Of a stretch of 64,000 nt of DNA, positions 2,622 through 52,240 are shown one piece after another. Below the pieces are notes generated by a model, which worked only from the letters and a program-made list of their open reading frames with translations, ran no database searches and was not told the DNA's origin. The stretch lies in assembly GCA_039793485.1 (NCBI GenBank), contig JBAMLO010000049.1, positions 4,157 to 68,156 of the forward strand, written 5' to 3'. The DNA is from Nitrososphaera sp. Its GTDB lineage: Archaea; Thermoproteota; EX4484-205; JAAOZO01. The translations under genes were made by a program, and so were the position numbers. Every line of letters starts with the position of its first letter. Position 1 is the first letter of the stretch.

Positions 2622-4045
2622 GCGACGCTCTTTCTTCTGTAGTAGATCAAGCCTTAAGAATAATAAAGCCTGATGAAAACTTAAGGAAAAAAGTTAATCA
2701 AACTGTAGAGACTGTAATCAAAGACTTAAAGGAAGTTTTTTTAAAAATAGACCAAAGGATTGAAGTTGAGCTTGAAGGCTCAATAGCAAAAGATACATGG
2801 ACTTCAAAAGATATAGATGCAGATATTTTTGTTTTATTTCCAAAAGACTATAGCAAAAATGAAATTGGCAAGATCACAATCAATTCGGTAGTCTCAAAAT
2901 ATGGAAAAGAAAAATGCCTACTGAGGTACGCTGAGCACCCATATGTAACGATAAATTTTGAATTCATGGACGTAGATGTTGTCCCTTGCTATAAGGTTGA
3001 GCCTCCAAATTGGCTTTCTGCAACTGATAGATCTGTCTACCATACAAGGTTTATAAGAAGTAAGTTCGATGATAAGCTTAAAGATAGTTCAAGGTTGTTG
3101 AAAGTTTTTCTCAAGAGTATAGGTGCCTATGGTGCTGAAATAAAAATTGGCGGGTTTAGTGGTTTTTTGTGCGAGCTCCTAGTTTACAATTATGGTGGAT
3201 TTCTAGAAACGATCAAAGCTTTTTCTGAGGTAAAACTTCCACTAATCATTGACCCAACGAGAAAAAGCGCTCAATTAAACAAAAAAACTCTAATAGAAAC
3301 CTTTGGTTCTGATTTTATCGTCATCGACCCTGTAGACCCTGAGAGAAACGTAGCTGCTGCAGTAACGAAGGAAAATTTCTGGAAGTTTTCTTGGGCGTGC
3401 AGGTCTTTTTTAAAGCGGCCTTCTTTAAGTTACTTTAGACTAGAAGGTTTTTTGGAGCCTTCTTCCTTGGAAGAAATTACTAACGCAGTCTCTTCTGGAG
3501 ACTTGAAGATTTATGGCATTTTAGTGAAACCTTGGAAAGCTCCCCCTGATGTTCTTTGGGGGCAGATTAAACGTATATTAAAGCGGATTGAATCAGAAGC
3601 AAAACAAAACGACTTCAATGTCGTAAAAAGTGAGGCTTGGAGCGATGAAGTTGAAGAGCTTTTATTTCTTTTTGTTTTAGAAAACGATAAAATAGAAGCT
3701 AAAGAGCAACTTGGCCCAAAAACGTTCGACTATGAGAACGCAGAAAAGTTCATCAAAAAGCACCTTAACGATAAGAATACGCTCTTTGGTCCTTTTATAA
3801 AAGACGAGAGATGGTATGTGTTGAAGAAGAGAACTTTAACTACCTTCTCAGACATGCTAGAGTTCATAGTTTCAAGCGATAAGTTTTTAAGTAGTTTACC
3901 TCAGGAAGCAGTAAGTTCATTTAAATCTTTTAAAGTGCTAAAGAGCACCGACTTAATAAAGTACGTCACTTCTTCAAAAGATAAAAAGAAAGCGCTTGTA
4001 AGACTTCTTTCTGGGAAAGAATGGTGGATAAAAAACATAGTCTAA
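2618..4045 (+). CDS. cca: CCA-adding enzyme (archaeal class I tRNA nucleotidyltransferase)
   Basis: Pol-beta nucleotidyltransferase signature GSIAKDTWTSKDIDADIF. At about 475 aa the length matches archaeal CCA enzymes. It overlaps the thpR stop by 4 nt, which indicates an operon. Confidence 0.85.
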   Translation: MSDALSSVVDQALRIIKPDENLRKKVNQTVETVIKDLKEVFLKIDQRIEVELEGSIAKDTWTSKDIDADIFVLFPKDYSKNEIGKITINSVVSKYGKEKCLLRYAEHPYVTINFEFMDVDVVPCYKVEPPNWLSATDRSVYHTRFIRSKFDDKLKDSSRLLKVFLKSIGAYGAEIKIGGFSGFLCELLVYNYGGFLETIKAFSEVKLPLIIDPTRKSAQLNKKTLIETFGSDFIVIDPVDPERNVAAAVTKENFWKFSWACRSFLKRPSLSYFRLEGFLEPSSLEEITNAVSSGDLKIYGILVKPWKAPPDVLWGQIKRILKRIESEAKQNDFNVVKSEAWSDEVEELLFLFVLENDKIEAKEQLGPKTFDYENAEKFIKKHLNDKNTLFGPFIKDERWYVLKKRTLTTFSDMLEFIVSSDKFLSSLPQEAVSSFKSFKVLKSTDLIKYVTSSKDKKKALVRLLSGKEWWIKNIV

Positions 4046-10085: not shown

Positions 10086-10820
10086 ATGAAAAAAGCAACT
10101 TTAGTTGTAATTGGCGGCAGTGGAACTTCGGACTTGTTTCCACTAGAAGAAAGCGAGGAAGTAAGTACTCCCTATGGAAAAAGTCTTGTTTATTGGGTGC
10201 GTGTTGCGGGCAGGGATGTGGCTTTTATCAGTAGGCATGGTCTAGCGCACAGTCTTCCTCCTCATAAGGTGAACTATAGGGCGAACATATACACTGCTAA
10301 GCAGTTAAGTGATAATGGTTATGTTGTAGCAACTAACGCCGTAGGGTCGTTGAACAAGAGAATGCGTCCCGGGGAGCTAGTTCTTGCAGATCAGGTTATA
10401 GATTTTACGAAGGGGCGAACTTACACCTTTTTTGATGGTGCTAATGGAAAAGTTGTTCATACTGACGTAACCTTTCCCTTTTCTAGTTTGCTTACTTCAA
10501 AGATACTAATGGCTTCTAAAAAATTGGGTCTAAGAATACACCCTAAGGGAACTTATGTTTGCACGGAAGGACCACGGTTTGAAACAGCTGCAGAAATAAA
10601 GATGTTCAAGAAAATTGGAGGCGATTTAGTTGGAATGACCTTAGTTCCAGAAGTTTTTCTTGCAAAAGAATTAAGTCTTGAGTATGCATCGATTTGCATT
10701 GTAACAAATTGGGCTGCTGGAATTGCAAAAAAAGTTTCTAGTGAAGAGGTTTTACAGGTAATGAAAAATCTTGCTCCAAAGTTAAAGTTGCTGTTAGAAG
10801 AAACCATAAAACTTATTTAA
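10086..10820 (+). CDS. mtnP: S-methyl-5'-thioadenosine phosphorylase / purine nucleoside phosphorylase family
   Basis: PNP/MTAP fold signatures: the VIGGSG N-terminus and the TNAVGSL and GMTLVPE motifs. It sits next to the MTA deaminase. Confidence 0.75.
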   Translation: MKKATLVVIGGSGTSDLFPLEESEEVSTPYGKSLVYWVRVAGRDVAFISRHGLAHSLPPHKVNYRANIYTAKQLSDNGYVVATNAVGSLNKRMRPGELVLADQVIDFTKGRTYTFFDGANGKVVHTDVTFPFSSLLTSKILMASKKLGLRIHPKGTYVCTEGPRFETAAEIKMFKKIGGDLVGMTLVPEVFLAKELSLEYASICIVTNWAAGIAKKVSSEEVLQVMKNLAPKLKLLLEETIKLI

Positions 10821-48737: not shown

Positions 48738-48866
48738 CATCTCCTATGAAAAGTCTATTCTTTTTAATTTTAGAGAAGAAAAATAAATCTTTAGCTCTCC
48801 TTTTTTCTATGCTTTTGCTATGTATTACTTTTTAGTTTGTAGGTGCCGTCTATGTTATCTCTATCT

Positions 48867-49001
48867 AAGATTTTTCTTTTTTGCTTAGAAACCAAGATGC
48901 AAAGGCTTTTAGTGCCTTAGCTCTGTGAGAATACTTGTTTTTCTCTTCGATGCTCATCTCAGCGAACGTGAGGTTTGAGCCTAAAGGCTTAAAGACGGGG
49001 T
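48867..49001. repeat. Left direct repeat (135 bp), a duplicated copy of the ham1 3' end (putative attL)
   Basis: 100 % identical to 51670..51804. Confidence 0.9.
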
Positions 49002-49666
49002 TTTCCTGTTTCAGAGATAGCAAGGTCTACTAGAACTTCGTCTTCAGTAACATCAATATCAGAGATTTCAAGCTTATCTACTTCCAGAGACAATTCATAA
49101 CCTAAAATACGCTTTGCCAGCTTCTTCTTGATCAACTTCTTCGATAAAGAGTAAACAAGTTTTACCATCTCATTAAAATTAAAATGGAAGGCCCCCACCC
49201 GCATTCTAATTCCATACTCAGGTTCAAGTTCAGAGAATAGATGCATGTCAGGAAAGACCAAAATTTTCCTTCCATTCATTAAAGCCTTCACTCGTGGATC
49301 TTTTTTAACTTTTTCGATGCACTTTCTTTCAAGAATCTTATACTGTTTTCTTACTTCATTAAGCTCTTTTAAATGTGTTTTGTTATTTTGAAATTCCTCC
49401 TCAGAGAGTTCCAATGTGATTTCATAAACTTTGTTTTTCTCCCTTAGAACTAGATTAAGCAAGCGGTCTACTAAGATTCCAATGCTTTCTCGATCTCTAG
49501 TGTATGCATCGATACCAAAAAGTATATCCTTACTTCTACTCTTCCCAACTAAAGTTATGCGACATTCCTTGGTTGTTACTTTCCAAAACTTCTTAGCGCA
49601 AATTTCGCTATTGGTTTTCGCAGATTTGTAGTCGTCGCCCCACCCCCAAATAGTAATTTTTTTCAT
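48989..49666 (-). CDS. Hypothetical protein (island cargo)
   Basis: 225-aa ORF. Its last 13 nt run into the left direct repeat in a frame different from ham1. No recognisable motif. Confidence 0.4.
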
Positions 49667-50577
49667 TCTTCTTTCCTCTTTTTTATTCTCCCTCTTCTTA
49701 CCTTTCCTTCCTTATATGCTTTTAGAAACCTTTTGAACCTTTCTATATGTGAAGGTTTACAACTTCCTATCTCCTCAATGAATCTCATTTGCTCTTTTGA
49801 GTATATCTCTAAGTAATGTGCATCGTAAGTTCTATCAGTGCGAACCTCAGAAGGATTAAAGCCTAGTCTTACTAATGCTTCTCTGACCTCCTCTAAGCAA
49901 TCTTTGTATTTTGACGATATCCGAAGTTTAATAGCATACTTCCCATGCTTTGCAACGCTCCCATCCCCTGAGAAAAAACCCCTTAAGTACGCTCTCAATC
50001 CTTCTTTATCTAGATGCTCTAAAGGAACATGATACCTATATGGTCCAGTCTTAGCACCTATTTCTTTTAAGTCATAATATGCTTCCTTGTTAGCTATTCC
50101 TGCTATAAGTTCACCTTTACCTTTGTAGATATTTGGCACCTTCCCGTAAACTTTCTCAAACAGTTCATTAAACCTTTTAATAAGTTCAATGTCAGCAGAG
50201 TGAAAGAAAATTCTGTAATGACCTCTTTGAGAAGGTAAACTTCCTTCAGAAGCTATAAGGCCGCATAATTCTGCTTTTTCAGGAATAAAAATTTCTTTTA
50301 TTCCATCTTTCGATACCTCTAGCATTACTCCAAGGCCCAAAGGGAACAAAATTCTATCTTCTTCCATCTTCGCCTTTGAAAATGTAGCTATAACGGTGTC
50401 TCCTCTTACTAATTTGTACTCTTCGCTTTCTGTTATACTTACTTTATACTCACCAAACTCTATTGTTTGTTGGCTTGATTGCTCACAAGATTTCCATCCT
50501 TCTTTATTTTCTGTAGAAACATGCTCCCCTTCGTGAAATCTTAGTTGGTGCTGTCTTATCAGCGAAGCTTCTCCCAT
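49663..50577 (-). CDS. LAGLIDADG-type homing-endonuclease-like protein, two-motif form
   Basis: Two LAGLIDADG-like motifs about 95 aa apart: LCGLIASEGSL and YLRGFFSGDGSV. The basic C-terminal tail is [13 protein letters not shown]. Confidence 0.55.
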   Translation of the reverse strand: MGEASLIRQHQLRFHEGEHVSTENKEGWKSCEQSSQQTIEFGEYKVSITESEEYKLVRGDTVIATFSKAKMEEDRILFPLGLGVMLEVSKDGIKEIFIPEKAELCGLIASEGSLPSQRGHYRIFFHSADIELIKRFNELFEKVYGKVPNIYKGKGELIAGIANKEAYYDLKEIGAKTGPYRYHVPLEHLDKEGLRAYLRGFFSGDGSVAKHGKYAIKLRISSKYKDCLEEVREALVRLGFNPSEVRTDRTYDAHYLEIYSKEQMRFIEEIGSCKPSHIERFKRFLKAYKEGKVRRGRIKKRKEE

Positions 50578-50578
50578 T

Positions 50579-51661
50579 TCATGTATTTCGCTTCCAATCT
50601 AATAAGTTGTGAATAGCTAATATCCTTTTACAGGATTCTAGATCTTTGATCCATAGATCGATTAAATCCTGTGGTGTCATACCTCTACAGGCATCGCAGT
50701 AACATTCCTTAAATCTTATTCTTTCATCTCTCATATCATATAATTTACAATTTCTGAAATAAAGCCCATGTTTAGCTTCAAGAAACCACGAAAAATTGCT
50801 ATAACTTATTCTACTATATTTGAGCTTTCTTCCAACTCCGTAAACAAGCATTTCAAAATTTTTGTTGTTAGTTTTGCCTAACTTCTTTAACATGCTCAAT
50901 ACATATGGAAGAACGTCATTTAACAAACCTTGCTCAAAAAGTTCTCTAGAGGGCATGACAAAGGAAACATAGCCCATCTCTATCTCTTTTTTAAGAGACC
51001 AATATATTTGACGTAAGTTTGCTCCCTTAATTAAACCAATTAATGGAATGTCAAGACAAAGAAACTCGTTTGCAAGTTGTACTAATCGTATTGTTTGCGA
51101 CCAAGATTGATATAATGGTGCATCAGTGTATGTATAGTTGTCCGGTATCATTGTAGCATCTGGTTTTAGGTCTTCAATTAGCTTGAGGTAGTCATCTATT
51201 TTTAGCTTATCAATAAGTTCATCTGGCATAACTGTGGATAGTAATATTTTTCCATTAAATTCAAGGAAGTCATGAAGACTTTTGCTTAAAGCCTTTAGTA
51301 GCAGATCTTTATGGAGAATCAACTGCCAAAGTGGAACAAATATAGCGGATGTCTCTACCTCCTCTTTCCAGAACCACGAGCTCTGGTCTGTTACATCAAC
51401 TTGAGGTATAAAAGTCGAAAAGTTGACTTTTAACATGCTTTTCTTTTTAAGAGGCGGAAGTAAGAGGGGAGGAGGCTTGCTCTTTCCTCCAATTGGACAG
51501 TACTCTCTTAGTTTGCAGAACGACTTGGGATAAGTTATGCCTGTAAAGGAATGTCCCTTAATGCATAGATCTACAAGACAACTTTCAATTACACAACCAG
51601 GACATAGTTTTCTATAGTAGTAGCATTCTTCACAAAGTATTCCACATTTACTTTTTTTCAT
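50579..51661 (-). CDS. tRNA-guanine-transglycosylase-superfamily protein (TGT/DpdA-like) with an N-terminal Cys-rich extension
   Basis: The C-terminal CYCDAC followed 25 residues later by H (AIHNL) equals the TGT zinc signature C-x-C-x2-C-x25-H (E. coli CDCYTC...TIHNL). The N-terminus contains CGILCEECYYY, a CxxxCxxC-aromatic arrangement, plus four more cysteines. Confidence 0.5.
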   Translation of the reverse strand: MKKSKCGILCEECYYYRKLCPGCVIESCLVDLCIKGHSFTGITYPKSFCKLREYCPIGGKSKPPPLLLPPLKKKSMLKVNFSTFIPQVDVTDQSSWFWKEEVETSAIFVPLWQLILHKDLLLKALSKSLHDFLEFNGKILLSTVMPDELIDKLKIDDYLKLIEDLKPDATMIPDNYTYTDAPLYQSWSQTIRLVQLANEFLCLDIPLIGLIKGANLRQIYWSLKKEIEMGYVSFVMPSRELFEQGLLNDVLPYVLSMLKKLGKTNNKNFEMLVYGVGRKLKYSRISYSNFSWFLEAKHGLYFRNCKLYDMRDERIRFKECYCDACRGMTPQDLIDLWIKDLESCKRILAIHNLLDWKRNT

Positions 51662-51667
51662 TTCTGC

Positions 51668-52240
51668 TCAAGATTTTTCTTTTTTGCTTAGAAACCAAGA
51701 TGCAAAGGCTTTTAGTGCCTTAGCTCTGTGAGAATACTTGTTTTTCTCTTCGATGCTCATCTCAGCGAACGTGAGGTTTGAGCCTAAAGGCTTAAAGACG
51801 GGGTCAAATCCGAAGCCGCTTTTTCCTCGGGCTTCAGTTGTTATTACTCCATCTACTCTTCCACTAAAGATCTTTAGTTCACCTCCTGGTTCGCCGTAGG
51901 CTAAAGCTGTCATAAAGTAAGCCGACCTATCTGTTGAGCCAGAGAGCAATTTAAGTATGCCTTCATAACCAATTGTTCTATAAACGTATGACGAGTATAC
52001 ACCTGGAAAGCCATTCAAAGATTTTATAAAAAGACCGGAGTCGTCGATGATGAAGTTTCCCTTAACAATCTTTAAAGCGTCCTCAGCACACTTCCTAACA
52101 ACTTCTTCTAAGCTGTCTGACTGAGGCTCGGTTATGTCAAGGTCAACCTGCTCAAGTTCAATTCCAAAGTCCTTAAGCAATTTTTGTGCTTCAAGGAACT
52201 TTCCACGGTTGCTAGTTATGAAGATAAGTTTAGCCTTCAT
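51668..52240 (-). CDS. ham1: Non-canonical purine NTP pyrophosphatase (Ham1/ITPase/RdgB family)
   Basis: N-terminal FITSNRGK and central FGFDPVF are hallmark Ham1 motifs. Confidence 0.85.
   Translation of the reverse strand: MKAKLIFITSNRGKFLEAQKLLKDFGIELEQVDLDITEPQSDSLEEVVRKCAEDALKIVKGNFIIDDSGLFIKSLNGFPGVYSSYVYRTIGYEGILKLLSGSTDRSAYFMTALAYGEPGGELKIFSGRVDGVITTEARGKSGFGFDPVFKPLGSNLTFAEMSIEEKNKYSHRAKALKAFASWFLSKKEKS
51670..51804. repeat. Right direct repeat (135 bp), the native 3' end of ham1 (putative attR)
   Basis: 100 % identical to 48867..49001. Its reverse complement encodes the ham1 C-terminus ...[42 protein letters not shown]. Confidence 0.9.

Follow-up and report, generated by a model that had tools for sequence, protein, structure and literature searches.

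A compact three-gene mobile element without a recognisable recombinase, inserted at the 3′ end of an archaeal ham1 gene

Introduction

The stretch of DNA considered here, termed “the window”, comprises 64,000 nucleotides of contig JBAMLO010000049.1 from a Nitrososphaera sp. assembly (GCA_039793485.1). It harbours the gene ham1, which encodes an XTP/dITP diphosphatase, and directly behind the 3′ end of this gene a 2.8-kb insert with three genes, named A, B and C in the following. The insert belongs to a previously undescribed family of compact three-gene mobile elements of Brockarchaeota, which lack a recognisable integrase. Full-text literature searches returned no description of a tRNA-guanine transglycosylase (TGT)-like protein and a LAGLIDADG protein in one mobile element, nor of a comparable integrase-less element that targets tRNA genes.

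The ham1 locus

The locus is composed of the following features:

51668–52240, minus strand: ham1 (XTP/dITP diphosphatase), the intact target gene (Pfam Ham1p_like, 2.7e-52; NCBIfam PRK14821, 5.8e-68)
51670–51804, minus strand: R1, the attL-like repeat copy, which forms the functional 3′ end of ham1; 100% identical to R2
49002–51669, minus strand: the unique part of the insert (2,668 bp) with genes A, B and C; missing from the empty site L003
50579–51661, minus strand: gene A, 360 aa, TGT fold (structure match, profile alignment and family conservation)
49663–50577, minus strand: gene B, 304 aa, LAGLIDADG endonuclease (Pfam LAGLIDADG_3, 5.1e-19)
48989–49666, minus strand: gene C, 225 aa, from a family confined to these elements and without known relative
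48867–49001, minus strand: R2, the attR-like orphan copy of the ham1 3′ end; identical to R1, with a downstream junction like that of the empty site
48738–48866, minus strand: native ham1 downstream spacer, which ends at a convergent DUF359 gene and has a 127–128-nt equivalent in the empty site

A repeat search of the window confirms the two perfect 135-bp direct repeats recorded in a preliminary description, which was made from the sequence alone. R2 (48867–49001) and R1 (51670–51804) agree at 135 of 135 positions, are offset by 2,803 nt and are the only two copies in the 64 kb. The repeat is exactly 135 nt long, since the neighbouring bases differ at either edge of each copy, and a chance origin of such an exact repeat is effectively impossible. 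R1 consists of the final 44 ham1 codons and the first base (T) of the stop codon, and it adjoins the start of the insert, which reads GAGCAGAAATG... The preliminary description had assigned the last 44 codons and the entire stop codon to this copy; the codons stand, but of the stop codon TGA (51670–51668) only the T does, as the insert begins with GA. R2, the orphan copy, runs into the native stop codon TAG (48867–48865) and the original ham1 downstream sequence, just like the single copy of the empty site.

The unique part and one 135-bp repeat add up to an insert of 2,803 bp, which contains essentially no non-coding DNA and lacks a promoter-like TATA box of its own. Six nucleotides separate the ham1 stop codon from A and a single nucleotide separates A from B; B and C overlap by 4 nt, and the final 13 nt of C, including its stop codon, fall within R2. 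A, B and C are the three minus-strand open reading frames (ORFs), spaced by gaps or overlaps of 1–4 nt, that had been described between the repeats. In the ham1 downstream spacer, a T-rich stretch (approximately 48772–48787) might terminate a ham1-A-B-C transcript. The repeat search revealed no inverted repeats at the insert ends, Pfam and NCBIfam yielded no match to a transposase or Cas1, and neither a tRNA-like structure nor an Rfam family was found within the 135 bp or the cassette (fold z-score −1.2).

The empty site and the second assembly

An exact-match look-up of the Ham1 protein retrieved two further contigs, JBMFNO010000003.1 from assembly GCA_049970115.1 (loci L001 and L002) and the JGI contig Ga0453805_04107 (L003). 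L003 encodes an identical Ham1 protein, followed by a single 135-bp copy, AG (yielding the stop codon TAG), the native spacer and the DUF359 gene; the insert is absent, and the flank is ~99.7% identical to the window. This is the empty site that the preliminary description had proposed to look for in a relative, and it bears out that the insertion is genuine. Assembly GCA_049970115.1 (L001) carries the same insertion at ham1 with repeat copies that are identical at 134 of 135 positions. The window and L001 are different assemblies, since 85 single-nucleotide polymorphisms (SNPs) separate them over 21 kb; both derive from MAG (metagenome-assembled genome) projects on Kamchatka hot springs, and JGI 3300041917 is a further source sample. 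Over 8.3 kb downstream, the window, L001 and L003 are roughly equidistant, with 22, 15 and 6 private SNPs, respectively. Exact-match look-ups of the DUF359 and C proteins for further strains gave no return.

The preliminary description had also named an assembly artefact as an explanation that would undo the insertion. In such an artefact, a free 2.8-kb circle sharing the 135 bp with ham1 would have been threaded into the chromosome, or the repeat would have been mis-joined. A 135-bp exact repeat is near common maximum k-mer sizes, and short-read graphs on their own cannot separate a circle plus an empty site from an integrated element. Yet two independent assemblies concur, and the repeat copies of one of them differ at one base and hence were assembled separately. 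Moreover, the trio is found at ham1 in related species with diverged or deleted orphan copies, the stop codon of C lies inside the repeat, and the stop codon of ham1 is finished by the insert. An artefact is thus scarcely credible.

Three independent contigs break inside or just upstream of ham1, namely L003 and L006 at position 1 and L052 at the contig end, which suggests strain heterogeneity or repeat-induced graph breaks in several metagenomes.

The three proteins

Protein A combines a Cys-rich module at its N-terminus (9 Cys) with a TIM barrel of the TGT fold, which has a CxCxxC...H zinc site. The Pfam TGT family matches below threshold only. In the AlphaFold2 model (mean pLDDT 85) the 9-Cys module is modelled at low confidence; the best Foldseek match of the model is the archaeosine TGT (ArcTGT) 1iq8 (E-value 1.3e-12, TM-score 0.65), and bacterial TGTs match, too. 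The zinc-site residues C320, C322, C325 and H351 are invariant or near-invariant in the family alignment.

Three active-site Asp residues, which act as general acid, in guanine recognition and as nucleophile, are invariant in TGT and DpdA and required for activity (PMC10164549). In a profile alignment, the guanine-recognising D130 of ArcTGT pairs with the conserved D174 of A. The general acid D95 aligns with the invariant S142 beside a 4-residue deletion, where alignment confidence is moderate, and the nucleophile (D249/D256) aligns with a variable S/A/I column, where the alignment is good. The invariant set of A consists of Ser142, Lys212, Arg239, Tyr274 and several Asp. Because two of the three catalytic Asp residues are missing, A probably lacks canonical TGT/DpdA chemistry and, as judged by its sequence, appears to be a TGT-fold protein of different chemistry. 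The initial label “TGT/DpdA-like” thus describes the fold correctly, though not the chemistry, and the assignment of A as a DpdA-type DNA transglycosylase was rejected, since the fold fits and the catalytic triad does not. A search of the cassette alone found A, B and C only and no DpdB or preQ0-pathway genes. Pfam detects no methyltransferase in the cassette, and A, which lacks the canonical transglycosylase residues, is the only candidate for a protective modification.

An A-like domain is encoded beside one element. In L129 (4666–6528, minus strand; the same place as L011 6440–7498), a 620-aa ORF comprises an A-like TGT-fold domain with 25% identity to A and, at its C-terminus, a calcineurin/Mre11-type phosphoesterase domain (Metallophos_2, 7.7e-5). 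This ORF adjoins a 755-aa protein without family match, diverges from the A-B-C element and may represent a separate nuclease system using the same re-tooled TGT module.

Protein B is a monomeric two-motif LAGLIDADG protein of the I-DmoI type. Amino acids 103–282 align with PDB 2dch and I-DmoI, the closest solved structures, and the motifs GLIAS(D/E)G and FFSGDG, including the catalytic acidic residues, are kept across 60 homologues. An additional conserved domain of ~100 aa forms the N-terminus. Both the Pfam match and the conserved motifs agree with the preliminary assignment of the second protein as LAGLIDADG-like.

Protein C has a predicted two-lobed α/β fold, which is confidently modelled and has no known relative, and no family match was obtained in four libraries (Pfam, NCBIfam, PADLOC and PHROGs); the third protein was rightly described as being of unknown kind. 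Only 81 representatives occur among 1.84 billion proteins, all of which are ~220 aa long or fragments. W7, W28, E34, K79 and G189 are invariant, Y55 and Y190 near-invariant only, and this pattern is unlike any recombinase signature. The same four libraries and the fold searches reveal no tyrosine or serine recombinase in A, B or C, as had been noted from the sequence, and no integrase Pfam family is present within 7 kb of 8 other element copies.

These features raise the idea that A or C is a new kind of site-specific recombinase, with B as a passenger or accessory protein. One candidate would be the TGT barrel of A with its invariant Ser142, Lys212, Arg239 and Tyr274 and several invariant Asp. 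A retains the nucleic-acid-binding zinc subdomain and the base pocket (D174, equivalent to ArcTGT D130), while the TGT catalytic residues are swapped for a different invariant set. Within the clade of elements found at ham1, A evolves as slowly as Ham1, with nonsynonymous divergences (dN) of 0.16–0.18 and 0.15–0.17, respectively; C is confidently folded and confined to these elements. However, recombination chemistry is without precedent on a TGT barrel or the C fold, and C has no invariant Arg/His/Tyr constellation. The catalytic residues of B are conserved, which argues against B being a dead passenger. Overall, a new recombinase is decidedly improbable.

Family size, distribution and variants

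The preliminary description had suggested searching for the same trio elsewhere. More than 160 related loci were found, including loci in hot-spring metagenomes, and A-B-C synteny is kept throughout. The A family comprises 115 clusters, all from Thermoproteota/Brockarchaeota metagenome-assembled genomes (MAGs). A was located at 45 loci in a genome scan, a single MAG containing as many as 8 of them, and a metagenome scan gave 163 matches. Across the family the element measures ~2.7–2.8 kb. Intact ORFs number 88 (A), 68 (B) and 65 (C). Frameshifts, tandem or convergent arrangements and rearrangements occur in some copies. IMG/VR (2.9 million viral contigs) contains no relative, and a viral origin was dismissed on these grounds.

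Several copies deviate from the common organization. The B gene of a tRNA-clade element is split in L044 (9441–11948) by a ~2.5-kb insert, which contains a UDP-glucose-dehydrogenase-like fragment and a 392-aa secreted-looking ORF, and the flanking repeats lie 5,034 nt apart. An inverted C precedes A in L017 (7197–9965), L021 (7209–9963) and L074 (6–2861); the first two of these have a tRNA-Gly gene behind B. Deep A clades (L036, L038–L040, L112–L128 and L133–L136), which share 43–50% identity with the A protein of the window, feature A-B followed by a third ORF of 172–218 aa without detectable similarity to C, and no tRNA gene was called alongside these copies. Finally, a complete archaeal A-B-C element with tRNA flank (L009; JBMFNR010000018.1, 2,950 bp) is binned in a bacterial Fervidobacterium MAG. 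This placement is almost certainly a binning error; the accession series and the isolate naming suggest a sequencing project shared with GCA_049970115.1.

Target sites and clade specificity

Approximately 40 of the 66 complete copies adjoin a tRNA gene called by ARAGORN, which immediately precedes A in the same orientation or immediately follows C in the opposite one. Direct repeats of 31–135 bp, ~2.8 kb apart, bracket 22 copies. At tRNA genes these repeats always span the 3′ part of the tRNA with the T-arm (23–64 nt) plus 0–33 nt beyond. The duplicated 3′ end of the target, which had been interpreted at ham1 as the footprint of site-specific integration, accordingly recurs in 22 relatives and mostly concerns tRNA genes. 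In L018, L024 and L076 the orphan copy extends on the element side into a diverged tRNA 5′ half.

The phylogeny of A follows the target and comprises a ham1 clade, a tRNA-Leu-type 3′-end clade, a tRNA-Met clade and acceptor-end clades. Members of the ham1 clade are always found at ham1. The acceptor-end clades (e.g., ...CCCGGTCCA) reside at different tRNA species that have only the last ~25 nt in common. Within single genomes, at least 8 different targets are used by the family.

A BRE/TATA-like box, aagcttttaaattc, precedes A in tRNA-clade copies. Upstream of A, a TATA-like box occurs in none of 11 ham1-clade copies versus 47 of 100 others. Since the ham1 clade lacks such a box, read-through of the cassette from ham1, as proposed in the preliminary description, is supported and plausible.

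In several ham1-clade copies, 46–48 bp of the A N-terminal coding sequence are repeated 12–60 nt after C, and the orphan ham1 fragment is absent. Examples are L006 (298–343 / 2961–3006) and L030 (8034–8081 / 10687–10734), as well as L052 and L082. This repeat looks like the remnant of a tandem copy, and it moved with the element between L006 and L082. At L098/L103, a candidate tRNA with a 184-nt intron called by ARAGORN adjoins the element 19–279 nt after C and may be a split or disrupted gene. The unequal repeats of L016 had been taken to indicate a crossover restricted to the final 11 nt of the tRNA. This argument was withdrawn, because L015 and L016 are orthologous loci and a later replacement of the tRNA gene explains the pattern equally well.

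The target sites are reminiscent of integrases, and the elements might be non-autonomous satellites. In this case, the trio would be cargo, and a tyrosine integrase (SSV- or pNOB8-type) acting in trans from the genome, a virus or a plasmid would recognise the carried att site. Direct repeats of a tRNA 3′ part together with a restored target gene represent textbook integrase anatomy, archaeal att sites cover a range of lengths that includes the 31–135 bp of the repeats, and the element has no recombinase of its own. On the other hand, at least 8 targets of one family within single genomes would call for many helpers or a very promiscuous one, and the identity of the target follows the phylogeny of the element’s own protein A. 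A search within 7 kb of 8 copies turned up no integrase, no relative was detected among the 2.9 million viral contigs, and there is almost no non-coding DNA to accommodate arm-type binding sites. At ham1, moreover, at least 260 nt of the gene beyond the repeat travel with the element, which a recombinase with a fixed crossover would not yield. Taken together, the satellite explanation is unlikely.

Mobility, selection and concerted evolution

Elements that are 90–93% identical lie in wholly unalignable flanks (L018/L069/L076, L007/L023 and L100/L107). At ham1, the elements of L006 and L082 are 96–100% identical, compared to 66–80% for the downstream flank, and L005 and L006 share 96% identity in the flanks versus ~87% in the element and 79–84% in the last 260 nt of ham1. 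In both comparisons, ham1 sequence past the repeat (at least 260 nt) goes with the element and not with the chromosome, which suggests that it is carried along. The match of clades and targets, the near-identical elements in unrelated flanks and the discordant divergence of element and flank at ham1 show that the family moves site-specifically, and horizontally into the same site. An apparent discordance between element and flank in L042/L048 was set aside as uninformative, as it reflects pseudogene decay.

The proportion of differing synonymous sites (pS) between the window and L001 is 0.037 in the element versus 0.013 in the flanks, which are themselves heterogeneous (Fisher p = 3e-4). The excess SNPs start ~50 nt before R1 and stop ~20 nt after R2. 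Three synonymous SNPs cluster within a 10-nt segment (51851–51860 of the window; L001 9802–9811), 47–56 nt upstream of the repeat; here the window reads AA..T and both L001 and the empty site L003 read GC..C. At position 74 of the repeat, the two copies share a T in the window and a C in L001. The repeat copies are therefore homogenised, and their perfect identity does not date the insertion. The ratio of nonsynonymous to synonymous divergence (dN/dS) of A, B and C amounts to 0–0.13, which shows purifying selection on all three genes, even in copies with decayed repeats.

Some of these data are compatible with an old, essentially immobile host operon, ham1-A-B-C, in which a relic repeat is homogenised by gene conversion and the empty site reflects a deletion between the repeats. 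Within the ham1 clade the dN values of A and Ham1 are similar, elements and flanks diverge equally in several orthologous pairs such as L015/L016, L005/L030 and L010/L012, the repeats evolve in concert, and the cassette has no promoter of its own and is predicted to be co-transcribed with ham1. Nevertheless, the same lineage occurs at 90–93% identity in unrelated flanks, and the L006 and L082 elements are 97% identical, compared to ~72% for the flank. Genomes harbour multiple copies at different tRNA genes along with tandem and degraded remnants, and strains that are 99.7% identical differ in presence or absence of the insert. At the level of the family a static operon is already largely refuted, and as an explanation of the window it is very improbable.

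Alternatively, the trio might be a selfish unit similar to restriction-modification (R-M) systems. B would be the nuclease, and A would shield the genome through modification or masking of a guanine in the B site; the unit would insert with duplication of recipient sequence and persist through post-segregational cleavage. R-M units without mobility gene that show long, variable direct target duplications, some of which overlap gene 3′ ends, have been documented (PMC2853133), and the duplications described here are comparable. Furthermore, at position 74 the two repeat copies share the allele particular to the strain, strong purifying selection acts on A, B and C also in copies with decayed repeats, and an A-like domain is fused to a Mre11-type phosphoesterase beside one element. 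However, A lacks the nucleophile and general-acid Asp invariant in TGT and DpdA, and the cassette contains no preQ0-pathway or DpdB-like gene. The clade-specific preference for tRNA 3′ ends is unlike described R-M insertions, and the orphan copies of L018, L024 and L076, which run into a diverged tRNA 5′ half, are no simple local duplicates. An R-M-like origin is quite improbable on balance.

A proposed model for the movement of the cassette

The window harbours an integrated copy of a new compact family, which, in the reading we favour, would be moved by a break made by B and by host repair or ligation. The 3′ end of a conserved gene serves as the insertion site, a tRNA gene for most clades and ham1 for the clade of the window, and the target gene stays intact, because a spare copy of its 3′ end is left on the far side. 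B is envisaged to make a site-specific double-strand break inside the repeated target segment. As this segment brackets the cassette on both sides, a cut target could be repaired from an occupied copy, and thus copy the cassette, with the repeat as the sole homology. Such synthesis-dependent annealing, a form of homing in which short adjoining stretches are co-converted, would explain the movement into unrelated flanks as well as the apparent short co-conversion tracts. Alternatively, the cassette might be released and re-ligated through the cohesive ends produced by B. A and C would have accessory roles, e.g., in target recognition, synapsis or protection. In the lineage of the window, the promoterless cassette would be read through from ham1, gene conversion would keep the two 135-bp copies identical, and recombination between the repeats, or re-cleavage, would regenerate the empty site seen in the sister strain.

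A number of points weigh against this reading. Cutting of the repeat by B is assumed, and the cleavage site is putative. In the occupied allele, the entire 135 bp and the two junctions of the empty site remain intact; since all of the empty-site sequence survives, classical homing immunity by site disruption does not apply, and consequently the model needs tolerated re-cleavage, or protection or synapsis by A or C. In about half of the copies next to a tRNA gene, an orphan repeat is not detectable. The copies within one genome are old (at most 75–86% nucleotide identity in A), and vertical inheritance seems to apply to many pairs, whose flanks and elements show the same degree of similarity (e.g., L015/L016, L005/L030 and L010/L012). 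The evidence for co-conversion stems from few pairs, one of which is truncated by a contig end. A circle or tandem junction (C-R-A) would read ...ACAGGAAA + 135 bp + GAGCAGAAATG; the excised circles that the preliminary description had suggested looking for were not found, as 33 small assembled contigs (~2.8 kb) showed neither a terminal overlap nor a C-att-A junction. Finally, the empty site could in principle result from a de Bruijn assembler that mis-walked across the 135-bp repeat, but the nearest A gene in the JGI metagenome scan is only 78% identical.

In view of all this evidence, we judge the chances that the B-driven reading is correct as a whole to be evenly balanced. More tentatively, and somewhat doubtfully, A, B and C might constitute a complete recombinase-free machinery for site-specific insertion and excision, in which B cuts the target segment present on both flanks of the element, A and C recognise, synapse or protect, and a host ligase or RadA completes the reaction.

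Site-specific insertion into tRNA genes is usually read as the signature of a tyrosine integrase, and the family described here shows it with a homing-type nuclease, a TGT-fold protein and a protein of unknown kind. If the trio suffices on its own, it would represent a new mechanism of mobility, in which the TGT fold is put to a new use, and a compact system of 2.7 kb from a thermophile would be at hand for programmable insertion at conserved sites; if not, it points to an unknown helper. A recombinase-free machinery, if true, would be a third route, besides integrases and transposases, by which a prokaryotic element enters tRNA genes. The family also shows that archaeal elements of such compactness can be long-lived under purifying selection and still move between lineages.

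Comparison with known systems

The A-B-C elements differ from transposons and casposons by the lack of terminal inverted repeats, transposase and Cas1, and by a repeat length that is not fixed but ranges from 31 to 135 bp. They more closely resemble archaeal tyrosine-recombinase elements in tRNA genes (SSV-, pNOB8- and pTN3-type; reviewed in PMC8371274), which likewise insert in the 3′ part of a conserved gene, leave end repeats of this part and keep the target gene intact. Tandem or decayed remnants at hot spots and lineage-specific targets are found in both cases. In contrast, the A-B-C family comprises merely three genes in 2.7 kb without a recombinase, a split int gene or room for arm sites, and at ham1 sequence beyond the repeat travels along.

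R-M units with long target duplications (Nobusato 2000; Furuta 2010, PMC2853133) are also nuclease-bearing and selfish, lack a mobility gene and feature long, variable direct target repeats, which sometimes overlap a gene 3′ end. Yet the A-B-C nuclease is of the homing type, its partner is a TGT-fold protein without the transglycosylase residues, and the targets are clade-specific (tRNA 3′ ends or ham1), whereas R-M targets are scattered.

Protein A resembles DpdA and archaeosine TGT in its TGT-type TIM barrel, its CxCxxC...H zinc subdomain and the Asp at the position of ArcTGT D130. A differs by an invariant Ser at the position of D95, a variable S/A/I at D249/D256 and an extra 9-Cys N-terminal module, and no DpdB or preQ0 genes accompany it in the cassette.

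Free-standing LAGLIDADG genes such as the I-DmoI/I-Tsp061I-type genes of Thermoproteota rRNA introns encode the same two-motif monomeric core with conserved acidic residues as B. LAGLIDADG homing genes also reside at highly conserved target genes, and the spread of the A-B-C elements is compatible with break-induced conversion and co-conversion of flanks. Unlike the homing genes, however, the A-B-C elements are not located in an intron or intein, carry two further conserved genes, destroy no empty-site sequence upon insertion (and hence confer no classical immunity) and have long target repeats.

Fungal mitochondrial endonuclease cassettes, e.g., at Allomyces atp6, bring along a replacement 3′ end and push the old one downstream. 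The resulting order is that of the window: the 5′ part of the gene, a functional 3′ end, the endonuclease cassette and a displaced orphan 3′ end. The fungal cassettes differ in that they contain a single endonuclease ORF, reside in an organelle and generate two 3′ ends that differ from each other, a property which provides the immunity.

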